Positions 6,423 through 23,063 of a stretch of 31,469 nt of DNA are shown in pieces. Each line of letters opens with the position of its first letter. Within the stretch, counting starts at the first letter, position 1. Below the pieces are notes generated by a model. That model did no database searches, was not told where the DNA came from, and saw nothing but the letters and a program-made list of their open reading frames with translations. Location of the stretch: contig JALWJP010000184.1 in assembly GCA_026997215.1 (NCBI GenBank), positions 340 through 31,808 on the forward strand, written 5' to 3'. This DNA is from Nanobdellati archaeon. GTDB taxonomy: Archaea; EX4484-52; JAADEF01. A program made the translations under genes and the position numbers.

Positions 6423-6614
6423 CGTTATATATTTTATACTTTATTAAGCGTATCATTTATTATAAAGTTTAAACGCTTTAGAAGTGGTTTTGGAATTATG
6501 ATTTCTATATCATCATCAAATAAAATAGAATAGGTGTTGTGATGTTGTTTTATTTTTATATAAGTATGTTTAGTTAAGTATATACATCTATACCTTAAAG
6601 GCATCGGCACACTA

Positions 6615-7005: not shown

Positions 7006-7229
7006 TCAAAATCGAATATACTTTTCTTTTTCTTCCTATTACCATCATATATCCTTATAATTAAATAAGGTGACACAAACATGACCTTTGACAACATTCT
7101 AGTATATTCTACAAATGAAACATCTATATCATAATGTTTTTTTAAATAGTTCCGTGTTTTCTCATACCCTTCTTTTAAAATTTTTTCGAATTCATCATCT
7201 ACTCTTATATTCTTACTACCCATAATCAT
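6999..7229 (-). CDS. Small DNA-binding protein, RHH/antitoxin-like
   Basis: SKNIRVDDEFEKILK beta-then-helix start and SFVEYTRML second helix. Confidence 0.55.
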   Translation of the reverse strand: MIMGSKNIRVDDEFEKILKEGYEKTRNYLKKHYDIDVSFVEYTRMLSKVMFVSPYLIIRIYDGNRKKKKSIFDFEW

Positions 7230-7633
7230 TAAATATCTTCATTAAGTAGTTTTGCTTCGTCTCTTCTCCATCTTCCTTTTAACATAACCATAAGGTATTG
7301 TTTAATAACCTTTAAGATAAATATTGCTGTCAACATAAAGAATACCATTGCTAATACATATGCTAATTTTGAATATACATTAACTACGTCATTAACACCG
7401 CTACCTGTATACTCAACCAATTCTATTGTTGTTGTGTTGTTGATAACTGTTATCAATTTCTGCTGTTGTATTGCAGGTAGGTATGATACTGATAATAACA
7501 TTACTATGATGTGTGATATTACTAATGTTAGAAATAGATATTTCAACCATTCACCTTCACTCTCATAATACAACATGGCATAAAGCAATATCAACATAAC
7601 CAAAGGCAATATAAACTCCATCACAATCATCAC
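7229..7633 (-). CDS. Membrane protein (about 3 TM), putative virion/envelope protein
   Basis: Three hydrophobic segments; NNT/NTT sequons in the loop. Confidence 0.75.
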   Translation of the reverse strand: MMIVMEFILPLVMLILLYAMLYYESEGEWLKYLFLTLVISHIIVMLLSVSYLPAIQQQKLITVINNTTTIELVEYTGSGVNDVVNVYSKLAYVLAMVFFMLTAIFILKVIKQYLMVMLKGRWRRDEAKLLNEDI

Positions 7634-7660
7634 CTATCATTAAGATAATCATGTAAATTT

Positions 7661-7673
7661 AAAAAAGAAAAAA
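7661..7673 (-). terminator. Oligo-T archaeal terminator candidate downstream of the putative capsid gene
   Basis: Minus strand TTTTTTCTTTTTT about 27 nt after the stop of 7700..7984. Confidence 0.5.
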
Positions 7674-7699
7674 GCAATGTAAGGGGCAAGCCGTATGGC

Positions 7700-7984
7700 T
7701 TAGACTCCTGCCACATTACCTCTTCCTATATATCTATATATTGCATATAGAGCTGCTCCACCAACTGCAACTACAATTATCACTTTTGCCATGGACACAA
7801 TCAAAGAGTATAGTCCTATAATGTTTGTCATCAATTCCTGTATCACAGTGTTGTTAGTTGTATCAGACAAAGTAGTTATAATAAATGGTCCTAAGAATGT
7901 TGCAACACCGAATACCAGCAACCCAAGACCTATAGACACTAATAGTGCCATGTTTCCTCGTCTCATCTTTCTGCTTAGTCTCAT
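7700..7984 (-). CDS. Putative major capsid protein of spindle-shaped-virus type (hydrophobic helical hairpin)
   Basis: 94 aa; basic leader ending RRG, two long hydrophobic helices linked by polar loop SDTTNNT with an N-glycosylation sequon; own TATA box, strong SD and terminator suggest high expression. Confidence 0.6.
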   Translation of the reverse strand: MRLSRKMRRGNMALLVSIGLGLLVFGVATFLGPFIITTLSDTTNNTVIQELMTNIIGLYSLIVSMAKVIIVVAVGGAALYAIYRYIGRGNVAGV

Positions 7985-7991
7985 TTTATCA

Positions 7992-8025
7992 CCTCATATA
8001 TGAGGAGTATTTAACCATTTTTAAA
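7992..8025 (-). promoter_or_regulatory. Capsid-gene promoter with a perfect 14-bp palindrome over the predicted TSS/SD
   Basis: TTTAAAAA (8025-8018); CCTCATATATGAGG (7992-8005) includes the start of the GAGGTGA SD. Confidence 0.6.
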
Positions 8026-8042
8026 GTTTTGCTAACAATTCA

Positions 8043-8336
8043 TTACTGCTTATATGCTAATGCCACACTAATCGCAAGTAAGATACTATACATTCCTACA
8101 AAATACCAGTTTATTATCCCTATTGCGTATAATATCACAGATACAACACTCATGATAAATAATGATGCCATTGCCGATTGTGAAAAATCATATCTACTTC
8201 TAAATATTGAGAATGTAATTATTGTTAATATAACTACTAATGATTCGCCAAACAATGTCAAACTATCTATATACTTTATAAATCCTATTATTCCATCTAT
8301 TTTTGTTATATCATACAATAATTCAACCATACTCAC
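8043..8336 (-). CDS. Membrane protein (about 3 TM), virion module
   Basis: 97 aa, three hydrophobic segments. Confidence 0.75.
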   Translation of the reverse strand: MSMVELLYDITKIDGIIGFIKYIDSLTLFGESLVVILTIITFSIFRSRYDFSQSAMASLFIMSVVSVILYAIGIINWYFVGMYSILLAISVALAYKQ

Positions 8337-8758
8337 ACCTCTCTATTTAAGAATAATTTTATCATTGCGAACACTACATTAACTATAATTATTGCTATTA
8401 TTATGCTTGTTAGTTCTTCTGGAATCCTCAATATTCCTGATATTTCTGATACAAATATCTCATACATACCCATTAAAGTCGTGAATATTAATTTTGAAGT
8501 CTCATAAAATGTAACTAATGTCACTACAGGCATATTCAATAACTCTATATCACTGATCCTTGCACTTTTTATTGATTCGGCCATATCATATGCCATATTT
8601 TTTATTTCTGAAACATAAGAAGTTACTGCATAATTCTCTATTTGTACTCCATAAGACTCACTAATATCACTAAAAAACATTCCTAATGATGTCATTACTA
8701 ATGAAAATACTAACATTAATACAACGTAATCTTTTAAGTTCATTATCTCATCCTCCAT
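8333..8758 (-). CDS. Membrane protein, virion module
   Basis: 141 aa, N- and C-terminal hydrophobic helices with an amphipathic middle. Confidence 0.75.
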   Translation of the reverse strand: MEDEIMNLKDYVVLMLVFSLVMTSLGMFFSDISESYGVQIENYAVTSYVSEIKNMAYDMAESIKSARISDIELLNMPVVTLVTFYETSKLIFTTLMGMYEIFVSEISGILRIPEELTSIIIAIIIVNVVFAMIKLFLNREV

Positions 8759-11700
8759 AATATATATACTCCTAATACTACCATGGCTATTATTGATGAT
8801 ATTGTTACCATTAAGAATCCCATCACCATTGAAAATATTAATGTTCCTAAAACCAATGTGACACTAATTGCAGGATTATAATACCCAACTCCTATTGCTA
8901 ATAATATCATTAATAATGTTAGGAATAAACCGTCCAAACCAATATTAAACACATATGATTTTTTGCCTATTGTTTTTTCTTCCAATAATATCTCCTTACC
9001 TTCTCCATCAATTGCATATAAGTAATATATATAAGATGAACTTGATAAATTTAAATCATTGCATATCAATTCCAAACTACTGCCTGTTCCTTCATTCTTA
9101 CATGCTATAGTGTAGTTCAATAATGGTAATTCCTCATAAACTATTAACTTTGCACTCTTCATTAAACCTGTTATGTCGGATATTGTGCATGATACTTTTG
9201 TATCACTATAACTGCAATCATATAAGATGTTCTTCCTTTGTAAATACTCGTATTGTATATCTTGAGATACTTTTATGTTAACCGTGAATGGTGGGCATGT
9301 GCTATCTATTCCACAACCTATTATAAATCCATCAGTATCTGCAACAACTTTGTTATTATGTTCTACTATTATCCTATATGTTGCTGTATATGGCTCTATA
9401 AATGTAGATATTTTACCTTCAAAATCAGTATAACCTACATATATAGATATGTATTTATCTTCTGTTGGATAATACCTCATTACTTTAACTAAGTATCCTT
9501 GTAATGGATTACCTATTTCATCAACCACCCTAACAATACCTACATAACTAACTAAATACCTCAATAAGTATAGCACTATATTGTTAACACCTAAAACATT
9601 ATCTCCTGATATGTTAAGTATATACCTTCTTTTCACATAATTGTCAGGATCTAAATCATCATAATAATGATCACCGTATATATTAAATGGTAAGTTTTCA
9701 GAACTAACTAAACATAATTCTTTTGTTGTGTTGTTAAACCTAAAAGTATAATGTCTACTAGCTTTTTCTGTACTTACATCATATATGGCATCTATAATGA
9801 AATCATTTATTACTGTATTATTCTCCTCATCTCTAACCTCGTATATGAACTTATTAGGATATGTGACTCCTTCACATAACCTAAGGTATAGTCCATATAC
9901 TCTTGTTGTTATACTACTTCCTAATGGTCTAACTGAGCCAGATATAATTAATTCTCCTGTTATCTCTCTATCCTGATACTTATCTCCATCTGTTTCTATG
10001 CTTGCATCAGTTATATTTATCATATCAACATCATATGATACTTTTAATGAATTATTTACTTCTATTGTTCTCTGTGTATTTTGTCCTGTTACATTTGTTA
10101 TATATGTTTTAATTGTCCATAGATGCTTATTACAATCATTTATACAAAACATAGTGTAAGTTATGTTCTTTACATTACCCTCTAATATTTTACTATCAAA
10201 ACTTACTCCTTCTAAATAATACCCATACATTAATGTTGTAGTGTTGCTAAATACTGTTTCATTAACTCCTTTATCATACAACCATTCAAAGTTTATGTTT
10301 GTTGCGTTTGTGATGATTAATGGATTTGTTACATTTGCAATGAAACCACCATCATACTTTTTTGCTATAAATGTTGCACTAACAACGTTAATACCTTTAG
10401 ATTTAAATTCAATAGTATCGTATTTCTCTTTTATAACCCATCCATCATATACTGTATTGCTATATACTACATTACCATTCAAATATAATATTACATCAAC
10501 ACCGCCATAACAAATGGTATTTGGTATACAACTATCAACTATATTAACTTCTAACTCATCCATAGATGTATTAAAGTAATAAGTGTAAGGTAAGGTAGTT
10601 AAAGGTATTATTATTTTTGAATCGCTGTACTCATAACTAACAACACTACCATTATGGATGAAATACATATTGGATTTATTAAACAAATATTCGTTAATCA
10701 ATAATTCCAATTTATAATTATATACTTCATCTTCATATTGATAAGGTGTGAAACTGTAATTTATTAATACATAATCATCAACAGTAAATAATATTTCCTC
10801 ATAATTTCTGTTGTAAGAACTATCTATTGCATAAACTGTAAAGTTATGCTGTCCTTCTTCTAATAAATTAGTATTATATTGTAAAATTGTTGCGTTTAAA
10901 TATGTTTCATTATTGTAAATCAAAACATCATCAAACCATGCTTTTAATGTGAAATTGCTATCTTTATCATCTATTGCGTAGTATGTGATATTAAAGTATG
11001 AAGTGTAATACGTTTTATTTTCCACTCCTGTTACGGTTATTGTTTGTGGGTTATCTGTTTGCTCAACTCCGACACTTGTTATTGGTTCAGGTGTAACATA
11101 TTGTCTTAATATTATATTGTCCCAATTTGTCTCCGCAGTACCTGAAGCCGATCCGTCTATATGTGAAATTTCTAAATAAGTAAACCCTAATAATGAACTG
11201 TCATCTACGCTATAGATATTTCCGTAAATGTTTGCAGTAATAGTACTTCCATTATAGCAAAAAGTTGTATGGTATGTTCCTACACTTCTTAATGTAGTAT
11301 CACTTAATAATGTTGTATCAGTACCCGCAACCTTTTTAATAATATATGGTCCATCTCCATTTCCTGTTGTCATATGCATTCTATACTCATTACTAGCGTC
11401 AACCATTACGTGTATTATTCCTCCTGATGCACCTACTCCTTTAGTCCAATCAAAATCTACACAAAATGTATTAAAAGTTGTTAATGTATTAGTATCTGAC
11501 GAAAACCAACCACCTGAAGCTGCGTCTGTTATACATGTTAAATTTAAACTTGTAGAGTTAATAACACAATTAGGGTCTACACTACTCCACTTGCTTAAAT
11601 CACTACTAAAATCTTCATAAAATATAAAAACTGCTGTTGCATTACTTTCACTTGTTGCTAGTGAGTTACCATACCACATCTGTATTGTGTATGTGCTTGA

Positions 11701-12027
11701 CGCAGGAATAGAAGGAACTTTAACCCAAATTCTTGTATTGGCACTATTACAACTTCCATCTTCTATCCAATAACTTAGCTCAGTAACTCCATCGCTTTCA
11801 GTAAATCTAATATCGGAACAATCACTATTCATCTTTCCTTCACTAATTATTGTTGCTGTATCAACCGTTACTAGAACTTGGTAATCTGTTAGTACGTTGC
11901 TGTTTCCTGTATTGTCGATAGTAATATCTCTATAATAACTCCAACCTGATAAGGCATATACGCTACTCATACTCATAAATACTGTTAATAGGATCATACT
12001 TATTAATATCCTATTGTTCATGCCCAT
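8743..12027 (-). CDS. Large secreted, membrane-anchored adhesin/receptor-binding protein with N-terminal DUF2341-like domain
   Basis: Signal peptide; WSYYRDITI...DYQV...SDCSDIRFT...LSYWIE...IWVKVP (DUF2341 pattern); beta-rich repeats; at least 25 N-x-S/T sequons by hand count; 2-3 C-terminal TM helices. Confidence 0.8.
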   Translation of the reverse strand: MGMNNRILISMILLTVFMSMSSVYALSGWSYYRDITIDNTGNSNVLTDYQVLVTVDTATIISEGKMNSDCSDIRFTESDGVTELSYWIEDGSCNSANTRIWVKVPSIPASSTYTIQMWYGNSLATSESNATAVFIFYEDFSSDLSKWSSVDPNCVINSTSLNLTCITDAASGGWFSSDTNTLTTFNTFCVDFDWTKGVGASGGIIHVMVDASNEYRMHMTTGNGDGPYIIKKVAGTDTTLLSDTTLRSVGTYHTTFCYNGSTITANIYGNIYSVDDSSLLGFTYLEISHIDGSASGTAETNWDNIILRQYVTPEPITSVGVEQTDNPQTITVTGVENKTYYTSYFNITYYAIDDKDSNFTLKAWFDDVLIYNNETYLNATILQYNTNLLEEGQHNFTVYAIDSSYNRNYEEILFTVDDYVLINYSFTPYQYEDEVYNYKLELLINEYLFNKSNMYFIHNGSVVSYEYSDSKIIIPLTTLPYTYYFNTSMDELEVNIVDSCIPNTICYGGVDVILYLNGNVVYSNTVYDGWVIKEKYDTIEFKSKGINVVSATFIAKKYDGGFIANVTNPLIITNATNINFEWLYDKGVNETVFSNTTTLMYGYYLEGVSFDSKILEGNVKNITYTMFCINDCNKHLWTIKTYITNVTGQNTQRTIEVNNSLKVSYDVDMINITDASIETDGDKYQDREITGELIISGSVRPLGSSITTRVYGLYLRLCEGVTYPNKFIYEVRDEENNTVINDFIIDAIYDVSTEKASRHYTFRFNNTTKELCLVSSENLPFNIYGDHYYDDLDPDNYVKRRYILNISGDNVLGVNNIVLYLLRYLVSYVGIVRVVDEIGNPLQGYLVKVMRYYPTEDKYISIYVGYTDFEGKISTFIEPYTATYRIIVEHNNKVVADTDGFIIGCGIDSTCPPFTVNIKVSQDIQYEYLQRKNILYDCSYSDTKVSCTISDITGLMKSAKLIVYEELPLLNYTIACKNEGTGSSLELICNDLNLSSSSYIYYLYAIDGEGKEILLEEKTIGKKSYVFNIGLDGLFLTLLMILLAIGVGYYNPAISVTLVLGTLIFSMVMGFLMVTISSIIAMVVLGVYILWRMR

Positions 12028-12029
12028 GA

Positions 12030-12296
12030 TTACAACACCTTCATCATGCTTCTTATTATCTTCCTTATCTCACTAGCTGTTTTTCTTGATATTCTTAAAT
12101 TACTATTATTTTTCTTATAAGTTAGATGATAAAGCAATAATAGTCTACCTTTTGCTATCTTCTTTGTTATTTTGCCTTTATTATAATCACTCAATATAGC
12201 CTTTATAATTTCTTCAAATTCTTTCTTGTTGCTTAATCCTTTTTTTCCTATGTCACTAACATTTACACCTAAATATACGTTTCCCATGTTATTCAC
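12030..12296 (-). CDS. Small basic protein, putative nucleic-acid binding
   Basis: 88 aa, K/R-rich. Confidence 0.7.
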   Translation of the reverse strand: MNNMGNVYLGVNVSDIGKKGLSNKKEFEEIIKAILSDYNKGKITKKIAKGRLLLLYHLTYKKNNSNLRISRKTASEIRKIIRSMMKVL

Positions 12297-12436
12297 CTTA
12301 CAAAATTCTTCATTACTTTCATATATTCTTTCAACTTCTTCTTTATCTCCTTATCATTAATTTCCTTCTCATTCAAAACAACACTCATATCTATTGTTGC
12401 AATATCTATTATATCTTTTTTATTTACACTCTTCAT
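12293..12436 (-). CDS. Small hypothetical protein (47 aa)
   Basis: Hand-translated MKSVNKKDIIDIATIDMSVVLNEKEINDKEIKKKLKEYMKVMKNFVR; AGGTGA SD. Confidence 0.55.
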   Translation of the reverse strand: MKSVNKKDIIDIATIDMSVVLNEKEINDKEIKKKLKEYMKVMKNFVR

Positions 12437-12461
12437 ATTGATATCACCTTCTATTCAATAG

Positions 12462-12746
12462 TCAAGGTTCTAAACGTGCATAATATAAGTCTGGGAAGTT
12501 TATTCTTATGAAACTAATAACCTTCCTTTTAAATCCTTTTGGCAGGTACAATATCCCAGGAACCTCGTCATATCCTTTGACATATCCTGGCTTAATTTCA
12601 ACCTTTATATCATACTTCATTTCCAATGCTTTCTTCAATTCATATAGATCCTCATAAGGAATGTGTGGTAGAAAGGTTATTTCTTCCTTACCTGCTGCCC
12701 ACTTAAAACTACTCTTAGATGCCTTCTTGCTTTTGCTCTTACTCAT
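12462..12746 (-). CDS. Small protein with K/S-rich N-tail, paralog of 6615..6833
   Basis: MSKSKSKKASKSS tail; C-terminal motif shared with 6615..6833. Confidence 0.75.
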   Translation of the reverse strand: MSKSKSKKASKSSFKWAAGKEEITFLPHIPYEDLYELKKALEMKYDIKVEIKPGYVKGYDEVPGILYLPKGFKRKVISFIRINFPDLYYARLEP

Positions 12747-12750
12747 ATTC

Positions 12751-12933
12751 TCACCTCTTTTTCCTTTTTTTGGTTATCATCTTCTTTCTTGTCTTGTACT
12801 TGCCTTCGCTTTTTGCTTTCTTTGCCCCATCTATTGCTCCAGCCAACATATCTCTCTCTTTCTTGTTTAACTTCTTACCTTTACTAACCTTCGACATAAC
12901 CTTTCCTAACTTATCTAATCTTTTCTTACCCAT
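12751..12933 (-). CDS. Very basic 60-aa protein, putative genome-condensing virion protein
   Basis: Extremely K/R-rich (ends KMITKKRKKR); sits in the structural module; role analogous to fusellovirus VP2 is inference. Confidence 0.65.
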   Translation of the reverse strand: MGKKRLDKLGKVMSKVSKGKKLNKKERDMLAGAIDGAKKAKSEGKYKTRKKMITKKRKKR

Positions 12934-12937
12934 TATC

Positions 12938-13408
12938 TCACCTTCTTAAATACATTATTATTATTAATGCAACTCCTATTAAATTAACAACTAATGGTAA
13001 GTATTTAACCAATGAAAGCAATAAAGGATATGAATTAAATATTGATGCAAATATCTCATCTGTTATAAATATATAAATCACATCTGAAAATATTATTGCT
13101 AAAAAGTCAAACAATAAAAGTGATACAACTGCTCCTATCAGGAATATTGGATGCACCGGTATTAATACTGCTGCAACCAATGATGACATGGCTAAAAGGA
13201 ACACTAATGTCACCAATAATTTTGCAAAATAATCATACAACCCTGTTGTCCCACTATACATACTCATTGTTATTGTTGAGTTGTCAACATCATTAACCCA
13301 CACATCTGCAAATGTGCTGTATAGGTAAAATGATACTCCAAAAATGAACACTCCAACCAAAACATATACTGGAACCATAATCAAATCTTGCATACTCACT
13401 ACCATCAC
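12938..13408 (-). CDS. Polytopic membrane protein (about 4 TM), virion module
   Basis: Four hydrophobic segments; NST sequon in the first loop. Confidence 0.8.
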   Translation of the reverse strand: MMVVSMQDLIMVPVYVLVGVFIFGVSFYLYSTFADVWVNDVDNSTITMSMYSGTTGLYDYFAKLLVTLVFLLAMSSLVAAVLIPVHPIFLIGAVVSLLLFDFLAIIFSDVIYIFITDEIFASIFNSYPLLLSLVKYLPLVVNLIGVALIIIMYLRR

Positions 13409-16356
13409 CTTCTTCTCTTCCTTCTTCCTCTCTTTGTTCTTCTTGTTGGTGAAATTATTGGTCTTATCTCCAAACCAGAGAATACTTCTTTGCTAACTCT
13501 TGGTGCTTTTATTCCGAACTCTATTGCAACTAATGAAGGTGCATAACTATATTTAAATCTTCCTCTACCATATTTTGGTTTAGGTTTGCTAGGCAAACTA
13601 AAACCGCCAATATCTTTTATTCTTGGAGGTAATGCTGTTGTTATAAGCGGTGGTGTAATCTCTACTTTTGGTGCTGTTATCTCTATCTTCGGTACACTTA
13701 CCTCTTGTGGAATTGGTTCACTAACTACTCTCGTCATAGGTTGTTCTATTGGTGGTTGTTTAAGCTGATAAGTCTGTATACTCTCCAATTTTGGCATCTG
13801 TGGTTCTTGTATTGGTTTGGTAGGCATCTTTATTACGTCTTTTATACCAGTGGAAGGTATTGTTATCATCTCTCCCTTTCCTACTTTAATAGGCATTATT
13901 CCGAATCCTTTGATTGTTGGTTTACCTATTGGAACTTTAAGCCCTCTAAAATCATAAGATACCTTACTAATATCGAATTTAACCTCAGGAAGTTTAACCT
14001 TTAAACCTGCCTCTGGTTTTAATATCTTTGCCATATCTTCTTGTATTGCTTCTGCTTTAATCTTTGTTCCTGTTAATGATAATCCACCTTTTAACTTTCT
14101 TCCAAATAATGGTTTCTTGCCTTCTATCACAACTTTAAACTCCTTATCAGGTATTGCATACTTTTCAACAACATCCATACCTCTTATCTCCTTTAAACGT
14201 GTTGTTCTAACTAATTTCCCTTGCTTCCATACTGCGTCTCCTATCTCAACTATATCTCTTATATTCCCTTCTGTTGCATATGATATTTTTTTGACTTGGT
14301 GAACATTTAGTTGTTTCATTCTCGCCAATCCTTCATTAACTGATTGCATTTCCTTCTCTATAACTATTGGTAATTTCTCTCTCCTAAAAACTCTAACCTC
14401 TTCTGCTTTTGCTGGTTCTTTGGTTATTGGCAATCCTCTCAATTTACCTTCTCCTTCAAATAGGATTCTGTTCTTGCCAATATCAACTATTCTATAATGA
14501 TATTTATCTCCTGTGATATACTCAACCATTCTTCTGTTGCCCTTAACAACTTTACTATATACTTTTAACTTGTCAAAAGAAGTGCTGAACTTCATCTTAT
14601 AATCAGGTGTATTAACATTAACAATTGCTGATTCTGGTTTCTCATACATAACCTTATACCTACCTATTGTTGGTTTCTGTTCTAATAGTATATTCTTCTC
14701 TCCTTTAATCAACATTGTACCTTCTCCTTTGATTGCTTTGCTTATCTCTTTCGGTCTTGTTATTATCCTACCTCTTCCCTCAACACGTGTCTTAGGTGTC
14801 TTTATCGAAGTCATGTATCCTTCAAATGTTTTTTGATATATTCCTGCTCCTGCTTTACCTAAAAAGTAGAACATTGGTATTGCTGCTATATCTCCTATTG
14901 CTTTTGATAAGTCTTTCTCTTTAATACCTTCATAAACATCATATCCTGTCATTCCTGCATAAGTGATGCCCATTCCAATACCTATTCCTTTTGGTGCTGT
15001 TCTAACTGCTGTAACTGCCAACTCTGCCGCTTTTGTTCCTGGCCTAAGTAATGGAACCCACCTAACATTAGATAATGCCACACTACCATATCCTGCTATC
15101 TCTGTTAATGCAACTGTTGATAATGTTCCTGCAACTTGTTTCTTTTTATATGTTTCATATGCTTCTATACCTCCTGTATTCAAAATGTACAATCTTTTTG
15201 CCAATCTCTCTTTTGCTATATCGCTTGGTGTTGGCAACCATTCTTTTGCTTTCTTCTCTAATAAAACATCGTACTTTTCAGGTAAGAATATCTCTGCTGT
15301 TTTAATTGCTCCCCATCCTACTGCACTACCTATATACCTTAAACTCCCTCCTCTAAACATATTAATATCTTCAAATAATGCTGCTCCATGTGCCTTAATC
15401 TTTGTCTTATATGATGTTTCGTATATGCTTTTGGCAACTTCCTGTGCTGATTCCCATTCTTTTTGAATATCATAACCAATTTGTGGCTCGTATTTTGATA
15501 CTCCATATATGTATAATTTTGGCTTATGATATGCTGCATAAGTATCTAGATATTGGTTATATCTAATCTTATTCTCTTCTACTTTTTTTAGACCTTCATC
15601 TATATCCTTTGTGTCTATTGCCTCAACTTCACTTTTTGCTTTTAGTAATCTCTCCTTCTCAGATTCTAAATAAGAAATTGCTTCGTTACCATATAATTTT
15701 CTACCTTCTACTATTAAATATAATCTATCATCTTTTTTAAGTGCTCCTATTTTTTCATCTAAATCTTTAAGATTCTCCTTTATTCTTCTTTCATAAGCCT
15801 TCTTTAAAAACATTCTATACTCTCTCTCTTTCCTTAATGCTTCTTTTTGTCCTTCGAAATCTGTTGAAGATGAACTGAACGTGCTTATATTCCTTAGATA
15901 TTGTGCAGTACTTGTTGGTTCTGTTTCTTTAAATCTACCTTCCTTCTCATCATAATAATAAGTTTTCCCTTCTTCGTCAACAAACCTTCCTCCAACATAA
16001 TGTATTCTACCCCCACCCTTCTTTTTAACTAATTCCTTGGCCTTTTCTTCATACTCCTTTCTTGCTCTCCTTCCTTTCTCATACAATTTTCTTGCCTTGC
16101 TTATTGCTTCTGTATCACCTCTTTTTATCTTCTCTATCCATTTCTCCCTTTCTTCACGTGTATAAACTGATAAATTTTTAACATAATTGACTAATGTTCC
16201 CTTATCAACTGAAGAGTTTGAACTTCTTCTCGAACTTGATTTCCTTTTATTAGAAGATGAAGATTTAGACTTTTTCTTAGGTTCATCTAAATAAACAACT
16301 GTTCCATCTGCTCTTACTGAGAACGGCCTTCCCAATTGTACTCTAACTTTAACCAT
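13405..16356 (-). CDS. Large 983-aa protein: basic termini, coiled coil, central Gly/Ala hydrophobic helices, Pro-rich linker; putative virion/DNA-delivery protein
   Basis: K/S/R-rich N-terminus, helical K/E region, GIGIGMGITYAGMTG-type segments, P/Q/E-rich region, C-terminal YAPSLVAIEFGI...GLEIRP then poly-Arg. Confidence 0.75.
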   Translation of the reverse strand: MVKVRVQLGRPFSVRADGTVVYLDEPKKKSKSSSSNKRKSSSRRSSNSSVDKGTLVNYVKNLSVYTREEREKWIEKIKRGDTEAISKARKLYEKGRRARKEYEEKAKELVKKKGGGRIHYVGGRFVDEEGKTYYYDEKEGRFKETEPTSTAQYLRNISTFSSSSTDFEGQKEALRKEREYRMFLKKAYERRIKENLKDLDEKIGALKKDDRLYLIVEGRKLYGNEAISYLESEKERLLKAKSEVEAIDTKDIDEGLKKVEENKIRYNQYLDTYAAYHKPKLYIYGVSKYEPQIGYDIQKEWESAQEVAKSIYETSYKTKIKAHGAALFEDINMFRGGSLRYIGSAVGWGAIKTAEIFLPEKYDVLLEKKAKEWLPTPSDIAKERLAKRLYILNTGGIEAYETYKKKQVAGTLSTVALTEIAGYGSVALSNVRWVPLLRPGTKAAELAVTAVRTAPKGIGIGMGITYAGMTGYDVYEGIKEKDLSKAIGDIAAIPMFYFLGKAGAGIYQKTFEGYMTSIKTPKTRVEGRGRIITRPKEISKAIKGEGTMLIKGEKNILLEQKPTIGRYKVMYEKPESAIVNVNTPDYKMKFSTSFDKLKVYSKVVKGNRRMVEYITGDKYHYRIVDIGKNRILFEGEGKLRGLPITKEPAKAEEVRVFRREKLPIVIEKEMQSVNEGLARMKQLNVHQVKKISYATEGNIRDIVEIGDAVWKQGKLVRTTRLKEIRGMDVVEKYAIPDKEFKVVIEGKKPLFGRKLKGGLSLTGTKIKAEAIQEDMAKILKPEAGLKVKLPEVKFDISKVSYDFRGLKVPIGKPTIKGFGIMPIKVGKGEMITIPSTGIKDVIKMPTKPIQEPQMPKLESIQTYQLKQPPIEQPMTRVVSEPIPQEVSVPKIEITAPKVEITPPLITTALPPRIKDIGGFSLPSKPKPKYGRGRFKYSYAPSLVAIEFGIKAPRVSKEVFSGLEIRPIISPTRRTKRGRRKRRR

Positions 16357-16404
16357 GATTAATTAGTTTTCGTCCATATTTTAAAAATATGTAAAAATGA
16401 AAAA

Positions 16405-17256
16405 TTATCTTGTTGTGTTTATGTTATTGACCACATTATATAGCCTATTAACCGCTACATCTAATTTATTCGCTGTATCCTGCATATTATCAGTACTTTC
16501 TTTTATCATTTGTGCAACATACACATTTTGATTTGATTGTTGTTTCATTGATTGCGTGATAGTATATGACACGTTTCTTAATTCATTTATTGTTTGGTAT
16601 GTAAGTTTCTTTTGCATGTCCATTGTATTTTTAAATGTGTCTGCAAACTTATTATGCATCTCTGATATTTTCATACTACCATATACGAATATTACTGACG
16701 TCATCAATATTGCCACTAATGCTAATATCTGTACGCCATATTTTGACCAGAAATCCATTTTACTTCTGTACATCTCATAACTATCGTGGTATTGTTGAAC
16801 TAACCAACTATCCTTATCATATGTTTTTTGTGCTATCATATGTGGAATTGGTACTATCTCTCCATTATCTAATTCTATGTCTCCTCTGAATATTGGCACA
16901 TCATCATAACCAATTAAATTCCCATCATCGTCGTATTTAGGAACCTTCATGATTAAATTTGTATCATCTGATAATATAGGATAAAACAATTCATTTGACA
17001 TTTGATATAAGTATATCGTTGCAACATCATTTATATTGTAGAACTTGCTAATATCTTGTAATGGTATTTTATAATTGTATTTTTTCCTGCCAACCTTAAT
17101 GAAGAAATCAAAAAACTTATATGCTACTTCTCCATTATTTTCTATGTTCCTTCTCTTCTCCCTTAACACCCTACCTCTACCATCATATATTGCAATCCCA
17201 TTTCCATATTTCCTAAACACAAACACTTTTATAGGATACTTTGTAGCCTCAAACAT
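16405..17256 (-). CDS. Single-TM membrane protein with C-terminal coiled coil, morphogenesis module
   Basis: Start reassigned to ATG at 17256 (MFEATK) after GAGGTGA; TM ILALVAILMTSVIFVY; heptad Q/N/M-rich tail. Confidence 0.8.
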   Translation of the reverse strand: MFEATKYPIKVFVFRKYGNGIAIYDGRGRVLREKRRNIENNGEVAYKFFDFFIKVGRKKYNYKIPLQDISKFYNINDVATIYLYQMSNELFYPILSDDTNLIMKVPKYDDDGNLIGYDDVPIFRGDIELDNGEIVPIPHMIAQKTYDKDSWLVQQYHDSYEMYRSKMDFWSKYGVQILALVAILMTSVIFVYGSMKISEMHNKFADTFKNTMDMQKKLTYQTINELRNVSYTITQSMKQQSNQNVYVAQMIKESTDNMQDTANKLDVAVNRLYNVVNNINTTR

Positions 17257-17260
17257 TTTC

Positions 17261-17785
17261 TCACCTCTTAAATGGAAGTATTGACCTCTTCTCCTTATCA
17301 TCTCCTTCCTTTACTATTACCCTCTCTGAACTTCCTATAACTCTCATTCCCATTCCTGCTAATGATTTCCTAAGGTTACTTTCAAATAGGTTAAGTATTA
17401 TGCTTATGACTATTGTTGCTTTATCAGGTGTTAAATCAAACTTCTCCATATTGACATAATAGAAGTCACTCAACTTCCTCATAAGATACCTGCATATTAT
17501 CATCACTCTATCTTCATCGTAAATAGATAATCCATAGATCCTACCATCTATAAATGCTGATATTAATGCTATTGTTTGCTCTATCCCTTCCTCATTCATT
17601 AATGGCTTTGCACCTTTTGGAACTTTTATCTTTATTGCACCTGTTTTCTTATCCTCTTCTACATACCCACCTTTAAGTTTTGCTTTTAACTCATATACTA
17701 ATAATCTGTAATCAAACATCCATCTTACTTCCTTCTCTTCTGGTGGATTATAACTCTCTTCCTCAACACGTCCTTCTGTTTCCAT
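17261..17785 (-). CDS. Hypothetical helical protein, morphogenesis module
   Basis: 174-aa ORF with GGTGA SD; PLMNEEGI motif. Confidence 0.75.
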   Translation of the reverse strand: METEGRVEEESYNPPEEKEVRWMFDYRLLVYELKAKLKGGYVEEDKKTGAIKIKVPKGAKPLMNEEGIEQTIALISAFIDGRIYGLSIYDEDRVMIICRYLMRKLSDFYYVNMEKFDLTPDKATIVISIILNLFESNLRKSLAGMGMRVIGSSERVIVKEGDDKEKRSILPFKR

Positions 17786-17795
17786 TTAATCACCC

Positions 17796-18122
17796 TTACA
17801 ACTCGCCTATCGTCATTCTTGGTATACTTCTCTTTATTCTTTTTAATAATTCTATAAATTTGAATTCTGATATTGCAGTACTATACATCTCCATATCTTT
17901 TGTTCCTATTTCTTCTTCTAATCTTCTACTTTCTTCTTCTATCTTATTGAAATAATCTTGATCCAATTCATCCATCATTAAACTCTCTAATGCTGATACA
18001 TATACAACAAAATCTCTTGTACCATATCTATCTATTATTTTAAGTATTGTGAATTTTATTATATCATTTATATCCAAATCCTTTATCACTGATGCAACCT
18101 TTACTACGTCTCCTTCGCTCAT
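17796..18122 (-). CDS. Hypothetical protein
   Basis: 108-aa ORF directly downstream of the ATPase. Confidence 0.75.
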   Translation of the reverse strand: MSEGDVVKVASVIKDLDINDIIKFTILKIIDRYGTRDFVVYVSALESLMMDELDQDYFNKIEEESRRLEEEIGTKDMEMYSTAISEFKFIELLKRIKRSIPRMTIGEL

Positions 18123-18123
18123 A

Positions 18124-19131
18124 TCAACCCCCCTTCCACATCTTCTCTATTATTCTTTTTAACCTTCTTGCTTGAGAATATGTTAGTCCAAACTCATCTC
18201 TTAAATCATCTAAATACACTCTACCGTTATTCATTAACCTGTCTCTTAATTCGGGTGTATCTAAAACTTTCTTTGCTAACTCATCCAATTGATTCTTCTT
18301 ATCTTCCTCAGAACCAAATTCTGATTCTTCAAACTTTTCTATCTCCTTTAATAAATCTTTACCTAATTTATCCTTAAACTTCCTTGCTCTCTCTTCATAT
18401 GCTCTTGCCAAATCTTCTGAAGGCAAACCAACTTTTACTGATGATAACTTCTCAATTGTTCCTGTTGCTACATTGTATATCCTTGGTGCTTTATAGTATA
18501 TGTTACCAGTATAATAATCTTTTATCAGTATTCTTGGATTAGTATATACCGTCTGCATACTATTCTCCAATACTTTGTTGTTGAATAGAACATACTCCAT
18601 TAACTTCCTAACTCCTACATCAACAAAACTTATGTGTGGTGTGATAACCATTGCCATTCCTCTCTTGTATCTAAATGTTGATAAGATATAAAGTATTGCT
18701 CGGTTAATGAATGAATAGAATGTTCTGTTGTTTATCAATAATTCTGCCTCGTCTAATATCACAACTTGCCCCGGCAATGTCTCTCCTGTATGCCTTTGTC
18801 TTCTATTATCCCAATAGTTTATTGCTTCTATGAATGCCTTAGGTGTCCACACAACCTTCTTATCTATATCTTCTAAAAGATACTTATCCATTTGTTCTCC
18901 TATCTTTAACCCCGTATAGGATTTACCAACTCCAACCAACCTTCTATTATTCCCTGTTATAGAAATAACAAACCCTCTTCTATTATCATATATCTCTTTC
19001 TCAAATAGTTTTATCAACGCTTTATCTCCTTTCCTTGGATCATATTGCATATAAACACGAACATAATCACTGCTACCTTGCATAAAACTTTCATTAACGT
19101 CATACTTTAAAAAGATTCTACATATTTCCAA
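18124..19131 (-). CDS. P-loop ATPase of morphogenesis (Zot/fusellovirus B251-like) type with C-terminal HTH
   Basis: ITGNNRRLVGVGKS (expanded Walker A), VVILDEAE Walker B, STFRYKR; C-terminal LDDLRDEFGLTYSQARRL HTH; ATG at 19083 is a likely leaderless start about 25 nt from a TTTAAA box. Confidence 0.75.
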   Translation of the reverse strand: MEICRIFLKYDVNESFMQGSSDYVRVYMQYDPRKGDKALIKLFEKEIYDNRRGFVISITGNNRRLVGVGKSYTGLKIGEQMDKYLLEDIDKKVVWTPKAFIEAINYWDNRRQRHTGETLPGQVVILDEAELLINNRTFYSFINRAILYILSTFRYKRGMAMVITPHISFVDVGVRKLMEYVLFNNKVLENSMQTVYTNPRILIKDYYTGNIYYKAPRIYNVATGTIEKLSSVKVGLPSEDLARAYEERARKFKDKLGKDLLKEIEKFEESEFGSEEDKKNQLDELAKKVLDTPELRDRLMNNGRVYLDDLRDEFGLTYSQARRLKRIIEKMWKGG

Positions 19132-19176
19132 AATATATATATAATATTTATTATATATACATTATACTACATAATA

Positions 19177-19821
19177 GTGAAAATAGTGCAATATTCAAAA
19201 AAAAGCTATTTTTTGAATAACTATTTAAATTCTACTGATAAATACTATTATATGCCCCGATACTCTTACAATTTAGATGATTTTATAATAAAACTACTTT
19301 TAATGTCACCGGAAAAAAGATTAAAGATAATCAGAAGAATGTATAACATACTCCCTAATGCTGAACAAAAAGCTGCTTTTGCCTTACTTTATATCTATGG
19401 ATTAAGACCAGCAGAATTACTTGAATTAAAACAATCAAACTTCCAACAATTAAATGATAACACCCTTCGTGTGTTCTTACCTACTAAGAAAGGTGGTAAG
19501 ACACGTATAATAGATTTAAATATAAATGAAACACCTTTCTTAAAAGAAACATGGGAATTCATAAAATCTCGTCCTTGGAAGATATTTCCACGTTGGAATC
19601 ATGTATCTATACTCAACAACACTATATTTAAAACCATCTATGAAGTGTTAGGTATAAATATAAGTCCTTATGCCTTCCGTCATTATAGGTTATCCTTTAT
19701 AATGTATAATGGTGGAGATGTACATGAAGTTGCTGCATGGAAAGGAGCATCAGACATTAGAAGTGTAATGCCTTATCTAAGATTTAAACCTGTAAGTAAA
19801 TTTAAAAGAAAAATAAGTTAA
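19177..19821 (+). CDS. Minimal tyrosine recombinase/integrase (catalytic domain only)
   Basis: LLYIYGLRPAEL (Arg I), KKGGKTR (Lys), PYAFRHY (Arg II), SVMPYL (Tyr); likely start ATG 19252, about 25 nt after TTTAAAT; only plus-strand gene. Confidence 0.85.
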   Translation: MKIVQYSKKSYFLNNYLNSTDKYYYMPRYSYNLDDFIIKLLLMSPEKRLKIIRRMYNILPNAEQKAAFALLYIYGLRPAELLELKQSNFQQLNDNTLRVFLPTKKGGKTRIIDLNINETPFLKETWEFIKSRPWKIFPRWNHVSILNNTIFKTIYEVLGINISPYAFRHYRLSFIMYNGGDVHEVAAWKGASDIRSVMPYLRFKPVSKFKRKIS

Positions 19822-20285
19822 GGTCTTGTTATGTATGCCGCTATGGTTAATGCCGTATGGTATAACCCATCATTTGCCCTAACTTCTTTTGTTATTATCT
19901 TCATTTCATCTATCTCCCATCCTCTCATCTCAAATGCTTCTTTAAGCATATTCTCTAATTTCTCTCTAACAACTTTCTCCTCAACTTTGTCATGGTATTC
20001 ATAAAATAACCCCCCTCTTCTCCCTTTTATTGTTGCATATCCAATTCCACAACTTGCTACTCCTTCTTTTATAGTTATATGAGAATATACTGCTGGTATT
20101 ACCTCTCCTATTTCTAAGGTAGGTAGTTTGTCTATAAATTTGGCTGTCTCAGGTATAACACTACTCAACTTAACCAAATTCACATTACCTACTCCCGCCT
20201 TCAACAATGCGTTATCAAAAGAAGATAGTTCCTCTTTACCAACACCCTCACTACTATCTATATATATCCACACTTCTTCCATCAC
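19818..20285 (-). CDS. pdaD: Pyruvoyl-dependent arginine decarboxylase (makes agmatine)
   Basis: SSFDNALLKAGVGNVNLVKLSSVIP signature including the Ser-Ser autocleavage site; GLFYEY conserved Glu; 155 aa. Confidence 0.9.
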   Translation of the reverse strand: MMEEVWIYIDSSEGVGKEELSSFDNALLKAGVGNVNLVKLSSVIPETAKFIDKLPTLEIGEVIPAVYSHITIKEGVASCGIGYATIKGRRGGLFYEYHDKVEEKVVREKLENMLKEAFEMRGWEIDEMKIITKEVRANDGLYHTALTIAAYITRP

Positions 20286-20292
20286 ACATCAC

Positions 20293-21642
20293 CTATGATA
20301 TATCATTTTCATTAAGATTTAATAAATTTTTGAACCCATACAATGCTATTAACAAACTATCAAAATAATCAGGTGATTTATCCTCTCTATCTATCACCCT
20401 ATATTGTCCATATTTATTATAGTCATATCTTATGTTTATCAAATCATCAATTAATGCAGAATCCTTAGGTATTAATATCTTACCATCATCTAACAACTTC
20501 TTTAATATAAATGCCATCTCTGTTTTTATGTTCTCATACTTCTCCTTATTAAAAGGTTTAGCCATGGCATAAAACTCCTCTACATTATCATACCCTCTCT
20601 CCCTTAACATATCCACAACTCCTGCTCCAACGCCATTTGCATCAACAACTATCTTATACATATTCTCCTTGCTATAATTTGTATAGATATAACTCACATT
20701 ACTCACTACCGATGATAATTCCTTCTTCGTTAATTGTTTTATACGCCTGATATAATATTTATCCTTATGTGGTGAATATGCCAATACTGTTATCACGGTA
20801 GAATCATCACCAAACCTCGCAACATCAACCCCTATCACCATCTTTACACTCTCTTTATAAGGTACTTTGAAGTTATTGTAATCTTTATATGCCTTTTTAA
20901 TGCTTTCGTGAGAATATAATGCATCTTCATCATCAACAAACTTAACTTCATACATCTTAACAAATTCTGTATTGCTCAATAAACTCTTCATTTTCTCCAC
21001 ATCTTTTAATGATAGTCTGCCTTCTTGTACTGCCAATTTATAATCTATCTCATATACTTTGTAATCCTCATCATTATAAGTATTGAAAAAGTGGTTCTTC
21101 ATTATTGGTGTTCCGTTCTCTAATATGATGCCATCTTTCTTAACGGTTCTCATAACATAATTCCGGTATTTGTAATCGTCTATAATCACACTCTCATCAA
21201 CTATCAATAAGTCTGCATTATATAATACATTCTTCCATAACTTATCATGTATATGTGCTGCTATTATCTTGCTATTATTTTTAAAAACAATTTTATCGTC
21301 AGAAAATTCCGGTCTTGGTACACTAAAATGTTCCTTTATATATTGTTGGCTTATTAATGGGCTTCTCTCTATTAAGTTCTTTATATATCCCATAACCATC
21401 TTAGATTGTTTACTATTGTTTGACATTATCACAACTTCAACATTATCATTCAATATAGCAAATAGTAATCCCGATATTGCAGATATATAAGATTTTCCCC
21501 ATTTCGGTGGTGCTAATATCAGTAACCTTTTAGTATGGGCTAAAACATCCTCTAATATATTTAATTGTGTGTTTGTTAATTCAACTTCTGGTAACAATGT
21601 TTTCACAATCATCTTCACAAAAAAATCCACTATTATCACCAA
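20293..21642 (-). CDS. terL: Terminase large subunit (ATPase + RNase H-like nuclease)
   Basis: LTNTQ Q-motif, APPKWGKS Walker A, LLIVDES Walker B, GTP coupling motif; nuclease GVDVARFGDDST, VVDANGVG, SPDYFDS. Confidence 0.88.
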   Translation of the reverse strand: MVIIVDFFVKMIVKTLLPEVELTNTQLNILEDVLAHTKRLLILAPPKWGKSYISAISGLLFAILNDNVEVVIMSNNSKQSKMVMGYIKNLIERSPLISQQYIKEHFSVPRPEFSDDKIVFKNNSKIIAAHIHDKLWKNVLYNADLLIVDESVIIDDYKYRNYVMRTVKKDGIILENGTPIMKNHFFNTYNDEDYKVYEIDYKLAVQEGRLSLKDVEKMKSLLSNTEFVKMYEVKFVDDEDALYSHESIKKAYKDYNNFKVPYKESVKMVIGVDVARFGDDSTVITVLAYSPHKDKYYIRRIKQLTKKELSSVVSNVSYIYTNYSKENMYKIVVDANGVGAGVVDMLRERGYDNVEEFYAMAKPFNKEKYENIKTEMAFILKKLLDDGKILIPKDSALIDDLINIRYDYNKYGQYRVIDREDKSPDYFDSLLIALYGFKNLLNLNENDIS

Positions 21643-22098
21643 TTATATACTTGCTGTTTGTATCTTCTTATTAGATAACCATTCTTTATATAAATTCTTT
21701 ATCATCTCTATATTGTCTGTATGTATCTTTGTGATATTTGTTTGTTCCTCAATATCATCATCTTTCAACCTAAATGCACTTAATACCTTTCCATATTCTT
21801 TACCAATATCAACTATTGCTTTGATGGCATCTAACTTCTCCTTCGCGTTTGAGGAATAAAACAATATCTTCTGTGCTTCTTTTAAGCTTTTGGCAAATGC
21901 AAAATGTAAAGCAACGCCAACCTCTTTGACTTCCTTGGTTGACGCTGCTTTTAGGATCCATTTTATATCCCTATTTATTGTCTCATATCTAACTCCATAT
22001 TTCTCTGCTAATGCTGTTCTGTTTATATTGAATAATCCTATCTCTTCTATTAATTTCTTTATCTCTAACCTTCTCTCCATTGTTTTTAATGGTGGCAT
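21643..22098 (-). CDS. HTH protein, putative terminase small subunit
   Basis: NRTALAEKYGVRYETINRDI HTH; immediately upstream of terL. Confidence 0.6.
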   Translation of the reverse strand: MPPLKTMERRLEIKKLIEEIGLFNINRTALAEKYGVRYETINRDIKWILKAASTKEVKEVGVALHFAFAKSLKEAQKILFYSSNAKEKLDAIKAIVDIGKEYGKVLSAFRLKDDDIEEQTNITKIHTDNIEMIKNLYKEWLSNKKIQTASI

Positions 22099-22110
22099 AT
22101 CTCACACCAT

Positions 22111-22695
22111 TTATAATCCATACTCTTTAATTAAATCGTCTAATGAAATCTCAAATTCCTTCAAACAATGTGGGCATGTTATTGTGACTAATTTCTTCAT
22201 CTTCTTCTCAACTGCTTTCTCAAACTTCTCCTCTATTTCTTTTTTCTCCTTCTCTATATCTTTCTGTGTTATGGAAGTATCCTCTTTTATTATATCTAAT
22301 ATCTTCTCCAATTCCTTGCTATCGAATCCAACAACAACCTCATCTAATATTGTTAACTCTTCTCTCAATAGATCATAATCCCATGTTGAATATTCAGAGA
22401 TCTTATTGTCTGCTATTCTATATGCCCTTGCTGTTTTCTCATCCATATCCTTCACAATAACTGGTATCTTCTTATATCCTAACTCCTTTAATGCTTTGTA
22501 TCTTGCATGACCGGTTATTATCACATAATTCTTATCAACTAAAATAGGTACATTATAGCCATATTTCTGTATAGATTCTTTCAACAATTTTATTGCCTCT
22601 TTATGTACTCTTGGATTCCTCTCATATGGCTTTATCTTCTCAACATCTACCATCTTTATCTCCATATCCTTCTTGTTTGCCTTCTTTCCCATCAT
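22111..22695 (-). CDS. ParB/Srx-like N-terminal domain protein with C-terminal CPHC zinc knuckle
   Basis: IKPYERNPR, SIQKYGYNVPILVD, ITGHARYKAL, IADNK; CPHC. Confidence 0.88.
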   Translation of the reverse strand: MMGKKANKKDMEIKMVDVEKIKPYERNPRVHKEAIKLLKESIQKYGYNVPILVDKNYVIITGHARYKALKELGYKKIPVIVKDMDEKTARAYRIADNKISEYSTWDYDLLREELTILDEVVVGFDSKELEKILDIIKEDTSITQKDIEKEKKEIEEKFEKAVEKKMKKLVTITCPHCLKEFEISLDDLIKEYGL

Positions 22696-23063
22696 TTATC
22701 ACCTCTTTTATTATAATCCATGTAAAAATCTAAACTTGTTTTGTTTGGTATATCCCTGTTAATTAAATCAACTTGGTAAACAAAATCATCCATAACCCAA
22801 TATTTGTATTTTCCAAACTTAACATACTTGTAAGTCCAATTATTAAACTTCTTAGTATAACCGCATACCTTAATGAACTTCACAAAAAGTATAAAAGTGT
22901 CTAGGTCTTTGTCATCAACATCTTTTTTTAATAAATACCAATGTGGTGCTTTTTTGGCATATGTTTTCGCCCATCTCCATTTACCTAAAACCTCATACTT
23001 CCTTATAAAATTGTTTAACCTCTGTATAACATGCTCATCAGTACAAATATACATAACTATCAC
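22692..23063 (-). CDS. Aromatic-rich hypothetical protein within the ParB/IbrAB cluster
   Basis: WRWAKTYAKKAPHWY...YKYVKFGKYKYWVM; overlaps both neighbours by 4 nt. Confidence 0.75.
   Translation of the reverse strand: MIVMYICTDEHVIQRLNNFIRKYEVLGKWRWAKTYAKKAPHWYLLKKDVDDKDLDTFILFVKFIKVCGYTKKFNNWTYKYVKFGKYKYWVMDDFVYQVDLINRDIPNKTSLDFYMDYNKRGDK

Follow-up and report, generated by a model that had tools for sequence, protein, structure and literature searches.

Head-tail viruses are regarded as marked by hallmark proteins that always occur together, namely the large terminase subunit (TerL), the portal and the HK97 capsid protein. Spindle-shaped viruses are placed apart from them as an unrelated group confined to archaea, and how they load their DNA is not understood. 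The signature of these viruses is considered to be the pairing of a hydrophobic helical capsid protein with an ATPase of the type described below (10.1101/2025.02.15.638363). One isolate, the temperate Haloferax virus LSV-48N, has a circular genome of 24.9 kb, imaged lemon-shaped particles and 13 proteins detected in particle preparations (PMC12714723); together with Tebi-SV1 it constitutes the proposed family Almyrocitroviridae (PMC13612827). Here we analyse a 31,469-nt stretch of DNA from a Nanobdellati archaeon (GenBank assembly GCA_026997215.1), hereafter the window, which is contig C184 (JALWJP010000184.1, 31,808 nt) without its first 339 bases. It carries a 12-kb structural block (7229-19131) and, nearby, a small and a large terminase subunit gene (TerS-TerL). 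On balance, we favour reading it as the near-complete mosaic genome of a temperate spindle-type virus (lemon-shaped, budding or extruded) that is associated with a DPANN archaeon and has kept the TerS-TerL pair of head-tail viruses. The combination of TerL with a spindle-type module is unique among the loci that we examined, and a literature search found no report of a spindle-shaped virus encoding a terminase.

The gene at the TerL-side end of the block (18124..19131, minus strand) encodes a 335-aa ATPase of the family that comprises SSV1 B251, His1 ORF16 and the LSV-48N ATPase. It consists of a Zot-like P-loop NTPase domain, in which Walker A and B motifs are present, followed by a helical C-terminal part. 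We built a profile, A2, from a family alignment of 13 sequences including the window ATPase. This profile matched the LSV-48N ATPase with an E-value of 1.4e-57, His1 ORF16 with 44.4 bits and SSV1 B251 with 39.5 bits, and no other open reading frame (ORF) of these three genomes. As a specificity control, about 1,800 ORFs of the host metagenome-assembled genome (MAG) and of head-tail loci were searched, and the best unrelated ATPase reached 19.6 bits. Direct BLASTP comparison of the window and LSV-48N ATPases gave 23% identity over 268 aa (E = 3e-16), and tblastn of one A2 member against 50,697 phage records returned LSV-48N as the sole match (30% identity, E = 4e-21).

The A2 profile also matches the structure of the Zot N-terminal domain (2r2a, E = 1.6e-5). 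The Pfam family Zot is matched by 7 of the 13 A2 members, and helix-turn-helix (HTH)-type Pfam families are found in a few of them, not in the window copy. An AlphaFold2 model of the ATPase (mean predicted local distance difference test score, pLDDT, 74) was compared by Foldseek with the viral models of BFVD and matched ATV ORF286, a protein of a Nitrosopumilus spindle-shaped virus and inovirus Zot; comparison with the PDB (Foldseek, VIA) returned only generic RecA/ASCE ATPases, with TM-scores of 0.2-0.3 and Z-scores of at most 8.5, and was not discriminating. The remote likeness of this ATPase to assembly proteins of filamentous phages has been noted previously (10.64898/2026.08.12.739948). 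In the window it appears as remote sequence and fold similarity to the P-loop domain of pI (Zot) of Inoviridae/Tubulavirales, and release of particles without lysis is a plausible theme common to inoviruses and the window virus. In contrast to the inovirus protein, the window ATPase has no transmembrane (TM) segment or periplasmic domain, and its genome of about 32 kb, its genes of double-stranded DNA virus type and its predicted particle type also differ. Relatives of the ATPase comprise a paralog on contig C121 of the same MAG as well as homologs that we found on 14 metagenome contigs and in two sister MAGs. A word-indexed homolog search with the ATPase returned the query itself only, and an exhaustive hidden Markov model search with A2 retrieved 8,320 cluster representatives at E ≤ 1e-3 (1,782 at E ≤ 1e-30), mostly of 250-340 aa. 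With thousands of representatives, spindle-virus-type ATPases thus form a very large family, nearly all of it uncharacterised.

The gene order of the block is that of LSV-48N in outline. The products measure 298-983-156-60-94-88-1094-141-97-94-134 aa in the window and 290-824-86-92-904-122-99-74-116 aa in LSV-48N, so that by position the 290-, 824- and 904-aa proteins of LSV-48N are the counterparts of the 298-, 983- and 1094-aa proteins. Both genomes thus have two proteins of about 800-1100 aa, with small hydrophobic ones between them and several small TM proteins after them. They also share the homologous ATPase, a short tyrosine integrase adjoining it, an implied temperate lifestyle and a comparable genome size. 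The window integrase (214 aa, 19177..19821, plus strand) was identified by Phage_integrase (6.9e-12) and phrog_1 (1.5e-16) and is divergent from the ATPase gene. A short integrase adjoins the ATPase gene in the related loci L017, L032 and L034 and in SSV1 as well. LSV-48N differs in having neither TerS nor TerL and in lacking phage-type recombination genes except a Dam-like methylase; the window differs in its apparent host, a low-GC DPANN archaeon and not a haloarchaeon. With SSV1 and His1, the window shares the ATPase family and clusters of small two-TM proteins, and its large gene for a putative TM-anchored adhesin may correspond to their terminal-fibre or adhesin genes. Unlike these two viruses, it has a genome twice as large, the extra 983-aa protein and the TerS-TerL pair, and unlike His1 it has no protein-primed polymerase. 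The membership of the ATPase in the B251/ORF16/LSV-48N family, backed by the control scores, and the synteny with LSV-48N support the assignment of the block as a spindle-virus-type morphogenetic module, as the preliminary description of this DNA had proposed. We also considered the 983-aa protein as a tape measure protein and the block as a tail module, and rejected this reading, since the TM proteins, the ATPase and the synteny with LSV-48N speak against it.

TerL (20293..21642, minus strand) matches Terminase_6N and Terminase_6C above the curated Pfam cut-offs and phrog_2 (2.4e-24), and is apparently intact. The gene upstream of it (21643..22098, minus strand) encodes a 151-aa small protein with an HTH-like N-terminal region. 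This ORF has zero Pfam matches and a weak match to phrog_15023; we call it TerS because of its position and its homology to the 169-aa ORF immediately upstream of TerL in the head-tail locus L009 (32% identity over 112 aa, E = 6e-14, in a small database). Pfam, phrog_2 and this homology confirm the initial observation of a TerL and an upstream TerS-like gene beside a membrane-rich block. Next to TerS, two ParB-like genes lie around a 123-aa ORF (22111..23824, minus strand; ParB_N, phrog_620 at 9e-54, phrog_2159 at 8e-76).

The nearest TerL relatives among 5.8 billion proteins are only 25-36% identical to the window TerL. We examined the genomic context of nine of them, which revealed seven distinct loci of archaeal head-tail viruses (Caudoviricetes) of DPANN and related hosts, with a portal gene just downstream of TerL (L005, L008, L009, L012, L056, L059 and L060). 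These loci contain ParB, a small ORF, TerL, a portal (or portal-MuF) protein, an S78 protease, an HK97 capsid protein and a tail tube protein. The ParB-TerS-TerL order of the window recurs in L005 and L008, and both ParB genes, TerS and an AAA_24 gene (40% identity) are homologous to genes of these related head-tail viruses. In a maximum-likelihood tree, a check proposed in the preliminary description, the window TerL is nested in a 22-member clade with 100/99 support that contains head-tail TerLs. It retains each of the 22 alignment columns that do not vary among 11 members of the clade, among them G49-K50 of Walker A, D149-E150 of Walker B and the nuclease residues D273, D334, D425 and D428, and for this reason looks catalytically intact. 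These data support a genuine TerL whose sequence points to derivation from head-tail viruses. To our knowledge, an intact TerS-TerL pair is otherwise seen only in head-tail viruses.

The head genes that accompany TerL in its relatives were not found. In all seven distinct portal-bearing loci the portal lies within a few genes 3' of TerL, followed by the protease and the HK97 major capsid protein (MCP), whereas in the window this place is taken by the spindle-type block. No ORF of the window matched a portal, capsid, protease or tail family in Pfam or PHROGs. Portal, HK97 capsid, S78 protease and MuF genes were not found on the contig or across the 0.9-Mb MAG: the Pfam portal family PF04860 and the HK97 families PF05065 and PF25209 had no match in the whole MAG, nor did tblastn with the portals and MCPs of the related viruses give any. 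Whole-MAG tblastn with every ORF of the related head-tail loci returned only TerL, TerS, ParB, AAA_24, the adhesin domain and a 70-aa domain. The lack of recognisable portal, HK97 capsid, protease and tail genes, first noticed in the window, is therefore borne out by Pfam, PHROGs and whole-MAG tblastn, within the limits of an incomplete contig and of a 983-aa protein whose fold model is unusable.

Several observations weigh against reading the window as a mosaic spindle-type genome. The contig is incomplete, and head genes may lie in an unassembled segment; such a segment is possible because one contig end falls within a gene. The gene in question encodes a VWA protein and keeps its C-terminal two-thirds, the N-terminal ~170 residues being absent from the whole MAG assembly. 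The TerL branch is long (1.68, against a median of 0.57), and together with an unusual amino-acid composition this fits relaxed constraint as well as a new role. TerL and the module are combined in one genome only among the data searched. The ATPase aside, no protein of the block is detectably similar to LSV-48N, SSV1 or His1 proteins: phmmer of the window against LSV-48N matched the ATPase and the Dam-like methylase only, hhalign gave a probability of 0.5% for the 983-aa family with the LSV-48N 824-aa protein, and comparison of the 298- and 290-aa proteins gave an E-value of 0.03. Finally, we scored small ORFs with a capsid profile made from SSV1 VP1, SSV1 VP3 and His1 VP21, taking 116 small two-TM ORFs of the host MAG as null. 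The 94-aa ORF at 7700-7984 reached −2.8 bits, and 87 of the 116 background ORFs scored as high or higher.

The first of these points leads to a different explanation, which we consider unlikely: the window would be one part of a head-tail virus or provirus that encodes its portal, capsid and tail in a region missing from the assembly, the spindle block being an inserted second element or a remnant. Besides the cut in the VWA gene, the integrase sits exactly at the TerL-side junction, and near the other end of the block lies an att-like match to the integrase gene of C121. This 29-nt sequence (7517..7545, plus strand) lies within the gene for the 134-aa TM protein, which is on the other strand, and matches C121 at 9934-9962, in the 5' part of its integrase gene, at 28 of 29 bases (blastn-short E = 2.4e-5); the flanks are unmatched. 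It has only two copies in the MAG and no match in 100 shuffles, and is possibly an att-type core, by analogy with SSV-type integrases, whose attP lies within the int gene. On the other hand, the usual place of the portal is occupied by the block, and the genes beyond the far end of the block are regulators and DNA-metabolism genes, with no head genes among them. No flanking direct repeats were found (no convincing att-type repeat of at least 18 nt brackets the block), genes overlap across both junctions, and portal or MCP genes were not found in other contigs of the bin.

The extent of the missing piece can be judged from the genes at the contig ends. A MoxR-type AAA+ ATPase (phrog_1297; 271-1338) and the VWA/DUF2201 protein (phrog_1314; 30676-31467) are encoded at opposite ends of the contig. 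Pairs of MoxR and VWA genes are known from the two-tailed spindle virus ATV as well as from many large phages, and in the two phages that we checked, phiTE and S-TIM5, they are adjacent or one gene apart. Because these usual neighbours lie at opposite ends, C184 may come from a circular or permuted genome of which only a short piece is missing, and little room is left for a structural module of at least 15 kb. ORF X at the contig start, considered as the N-terminus of the VWA protein, had no PHROG match.

Genes abut or overlap across the junctions of the block, at 20285/20293, 19818/19821 and 7229/7229. The tetranucleotide correlation is 0.958 between block and rest and 0.973 between the two flanks. 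The sole run of Ns, a 10-N scaffold gap at contig positions 330-339, is far from both junctions. Block and flanks thus likely form one replicon. These data bear on another explanation, an assembly or scaffolding chimera of a head-tail and a spindle-type virus co-occurring in the same host. The window does come from a single metagenomic scaffold with an N gap, related MAGs contain the two virus types separately, and the sister element on C121 shares a segment of 293 nt at 86% nucleotide identity. However, the gap is distant from the junctions, two chimeric joins would be required at places with operon-like spacing or overlapping ORFs, composition is uniform, and the 293-nt segment is within the adhesin gene, not at a junction. 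C121 likewise combines block genes with a homolog of a flank gene. We therefore regard an assembly artefact as highly improbable.

The module recurs in other loci: L017, L018, L028/L040, L032 and G031:C41, L042 showing the ATPase and integrase only. Its recurrent content is the ATPase, proteins of ~150-180 aa, a TM protein, a 700-980-aa protein, a small multi-TM protein, an adhesin and small TM proteins. The adhesin-like proteins of these loci measure 940-1660 aa and show DUF2341-type similarity to that of the window in all but L032. No TerL is present in the seven other loci that have this module, and IMG/VR held no close relatives when searched with TerL, the 983-aa protein, the ATPase and its alignment. 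The preliminary description had offered two possibilities, a lineage combining a terminase with a membrane-extruded virion or a chimera. Since the other module loci are without TerL and the related TerLs sit beside portals, a lineage is not upheld, and a chimera, in the form of a single mosaic genome, fits better.

C121 (L017, 13 kb) is a second spindle-type element in the same MAG. Its ATPase is 25% identical to that of the window, and it also encodes an integrase, an 836-aa protein, a VP1/VP21-like 67-aa protein and a 952-aa adhesin. It further carries a homolog (39% identity) of the PD-(D/E)XK nuclease encoded in the window flank; because C121 shares both kinds of genes with the window, flank and block genes travel together elsewhere. 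The adhesin genes of the two elements are 86% identical in nucleotide sequence over the first 293 nt of the conserved region, which suggests that a host-recognition domain was exchanged recently between them.

The favoured scenario has two parts. The integrase and the 12-kb block would derive from spindle-virus-like integrative elements, the nearest isolated relative being LSV-48N; the remaining ~19 kb, which includes AAA_24, PD-(D/E)XK nuclease, Hjc, RNA ligase, Dam, MoxR-VWA and ParB-TerS-TerL genes, would be of a type found in head-tail viruses that infect this host group. The ParB-TerS-TerL block may have been acquired from a head-tail virus by recombination, with a break directly after TerL. 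Particles would be built at the membrane from small hydrophobic proteins, the Zot-like ATPase would act in assembly or egress, and the 1094-aa adhesin would form the terminal fibre. In such a virus TerS-TerL would not pump DNA through a portal. Its most likely role, and our preferred guess, would be that of a site-specific nuclease cutting unit genomes from concatemers, which the phage-type genes for recombination-dependent replication (AAA_24, PD-(D/E)XK nuclease and Hjc) may generate. Alternatively, TerL may be a recent, still-undecayed passenger. The stronger proposal that the window is a functional cross-realm hybrid, in which a spindle virion without portal or HK97 capsid needs a Caudoviricetes-type TerS-TerL for genome maturation or encapsidation, we put forward as tentative.

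The terminase pair might also serve a satellite-like lifestyle, in which TerS-TerL redirects procapsids of a helper head-tail virus, besides or instead of the element's own particles. An integrase and TerS-TerL without capsid genes recall some phage satellites, such as those of the phage-inducible chromosomal island (PICI) type, and the host group is also infected by head-tail viruses whose TerL is related. The clade, moreover, contains a second lone TerS-TerL pair, located in a cellular island. It lies at 5214-7071 of a Logan contig of SRR6240789 (L010), has no portal, is adjacent to GmrSD_N and AAA_23 genes and near a gene for a PEP-utilising enzyme, and could represent a satellite of archaea or a terminase co-opted for a different function. 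For the window a satellite is quite unlikely in our view: known satellites are much smaller and less self-sufficient than this genome of ~32 kb with its full alternative morphogenetic block, a helper was not identified and genes for capsid-size remodelling are not recognisable.

Compared with the same two-TM background, small ORFs of sister elements exceed the window candidate on the capsid profile: the best of L018 reached 14.6 bits (0 of 116 background ORFs as high) and that of L017 8.7 bits (1 of 116). With these two added in a 5-sequence profile, the top ORF of the window was that at 3308-3493, with 11.6 bits against 8.3 for the best background ORF, a weak lead. This 61-aa ORF is one of three consecutive two-TM ORFs (66, 61 and 50 aa; 3100-3653) among the DNA-metabolism genes, far from the block. 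In the block, the 94-aa candidate stays at background level, and a capsid protein of the window could not be matched to VP1, VP3 or VP21. The 156-aa multi-TM protein (12938..13408, minus strand), a candidate capsid or membrane protein, is weakly similar to it (E = 2e-4) and has homologs in L028 and L040 (185 aa, E = 2e-8). Its size and TM profile recall VP35, the proposed MCP of Tebi-SV1 (PMC13612827). Several two- to five-TM ORFs of the window remain capsid candidates.

That a capsid protein was not identified in the window would also fit a non-viral block, namely a conjugation-like or vesicle-type apparatus for DNA or protein transfer of an integrative plasmid. By description only, the window resembles the pT26-2 plasmids of Thermococcales and Methanococcales in its integrase, its membrane-rich module with one ATPase and a carbohydrate-binding protein, and its variable replication region. 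In the pT26-2 module 12 genes are conserved; an ATPase and a carbohydrate-binding protein are among the products, nine of which have TM helices, and an integrase is present (PMC6972569). Seven genes form the core of this plasmid family (t26-5p, 6p, 7p, 11p, 13p, 14p and 15p). Some members of the module family carry plasmid-like replication genes, such as MCM. However, the pT26-2 ATPase is reported to be HerA/VirB4-like, not B251-like, and no virions are known (PMC6972569). The window ATPase belongs specifically to the spindle-virus family, with its nearest characterised member in a virus whose lemon-shaped virions have been imaged (PMC12714723), and the relatives of the window encode small proteins that score as VP1/VP21-like. 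A transfer apparatus is thus very unlikely.

The other genes of the block, all on the minus strand, confirmed its initial description as membrane proteins, small basic proteins, an adhesin and an ATPase. Next to the ATPase lie a 108-aa acidic helical protein (17796..18122), with no family match above threshold, and a 174-aa conserved module protein (17261..17785) with a homolog of 181 aa in L028 (phmmer E = 5e-9). The 298-aa protein (16405..17301), initially given as 283 aa, shows in sequence and hydropathy a soluble N-terminal domain, one TM helix and an Asn/Gln-rich C-terminal part. The 983-aa protein (13405..16356) has a helical, highly charged N-terminus, a Gly/Ala-rich hydrophobic centre and a poly-basic C-terminal tail. 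Its counterparts at the same position measure 702-966 aa; among the four whose architecture we inspected (L017, L018, L028 and L032), the Gly-rich hydrophobic centre is present in all and the basic tail in three, and a C-terminal motif is common to the window and L028. An AlphaFold2 model based on a 6-sequence alignment reached a pLDDT of 38 and is unusable. Searches of the ESM Atlas with the 983- and 298-aa proteins gave uninformative scores of at most 0.84, a cluster of SSV1 B277 at 0.76 being a hint only, and phmmer of the 983- and 1094-aa proteins against PDB sequences returned no match. Three small proteins of 60, 94 and 88 aa, the last one basic, are encoded at 12030..12933, and four small membrane proteins of 141, 97, 94 and 134 aa, recognised by hydropathy, at 7229..8758; the second 94-aa protein is the capsid candidate discussed above.

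The 1094-aa protein (8743..12027, minus strand; DUF2341, 4.7e-26) is a predicted secreted, TM-anchored adhesin and a candidate terminal fibre. It has an N-terminal hydrophobic leader, the DUF2341 domain and C-terminal TM helices, and with 28 N-x-S/T sequons, against about 16 expected, it is probably glycosylated. It is 42% identical over 431 aa to the 952-aa protein of C121 and also similar to adhesin-like ORFs of L018, L028 and G031:C41. Its N-terminal 150 aa, corresponding to DUF2341, are 34-48% identical to host proteins encoded on contigs C86, C185, C131 and C92, of which C86 carries four tandem copies of the domain, and its DUF2341 is 50% identical to the last ORF of the head-tail virus L006. 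The domain thus seems common to host surface proteins and to both virus types.

Another domain, of ~70 aa, occurs twice in the window, in a 72-aa ORF outside the block (6615-6833) and in a paralogous 94-aa ORF inside it (12462-12746; E = 1e-4). It is also found as an insert (46% identity) in a 646-aa S78-like head protein of the head-tail locus L008 (7315-9255), where residues 192-260 are matched. We considered the 72-aa ORF as a remnant of a prohead protease and rejected this idea, because it is an intact small domain with a paralog.

C184 is the longest contig of the 0.9-Mb, 200-contig, 82%-complete archaeal MAG. The window has a GC content of ~30%, its minus strand carries nearly all genes, no obvious cellular housekeeping gene was found on C184, and the window contains no tRNA gene as integration target. 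Directly after TerL lies a gene for a pyruvoyl-dependent arginine decarboxylase (19818..20285, minus strand; Pfam PvlArgDC, 5.6e-31); this gene and the integrase gene, both unmentioned in the preliminary description, sit between TerL and the structural block. The enzyme is 45% identical in amino-acid sequence to the MAG's own copy on contig C48, and is likely a virus-borne auxiliary metabolic gene for polyamine synthesis in a host with a reduced genome. A PAPS-reductase/DUF3440 protein (23754-24887) adjoins the ParB-like genes, a pairing common in phage loci for DNA modification or anti-restriction.

The window genome provides a concrete case of gene flow between head-tail and spindle-shaped viruses. 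It extends LSV-48N-like and fusello-like elements to low-GC DPANN archaea, and since the ATPase profile retrieves thousands of uncharacterised relatives, elements of this kind may be much commoner than the few isolates suggest. It also offers a way to study DNA maturation or loading in spindle viruses, since packaged genomes have ends that can be examined. If the window does encode a hybrid that needs its terminase, a terminase can work outside the context of portal and procapsid.

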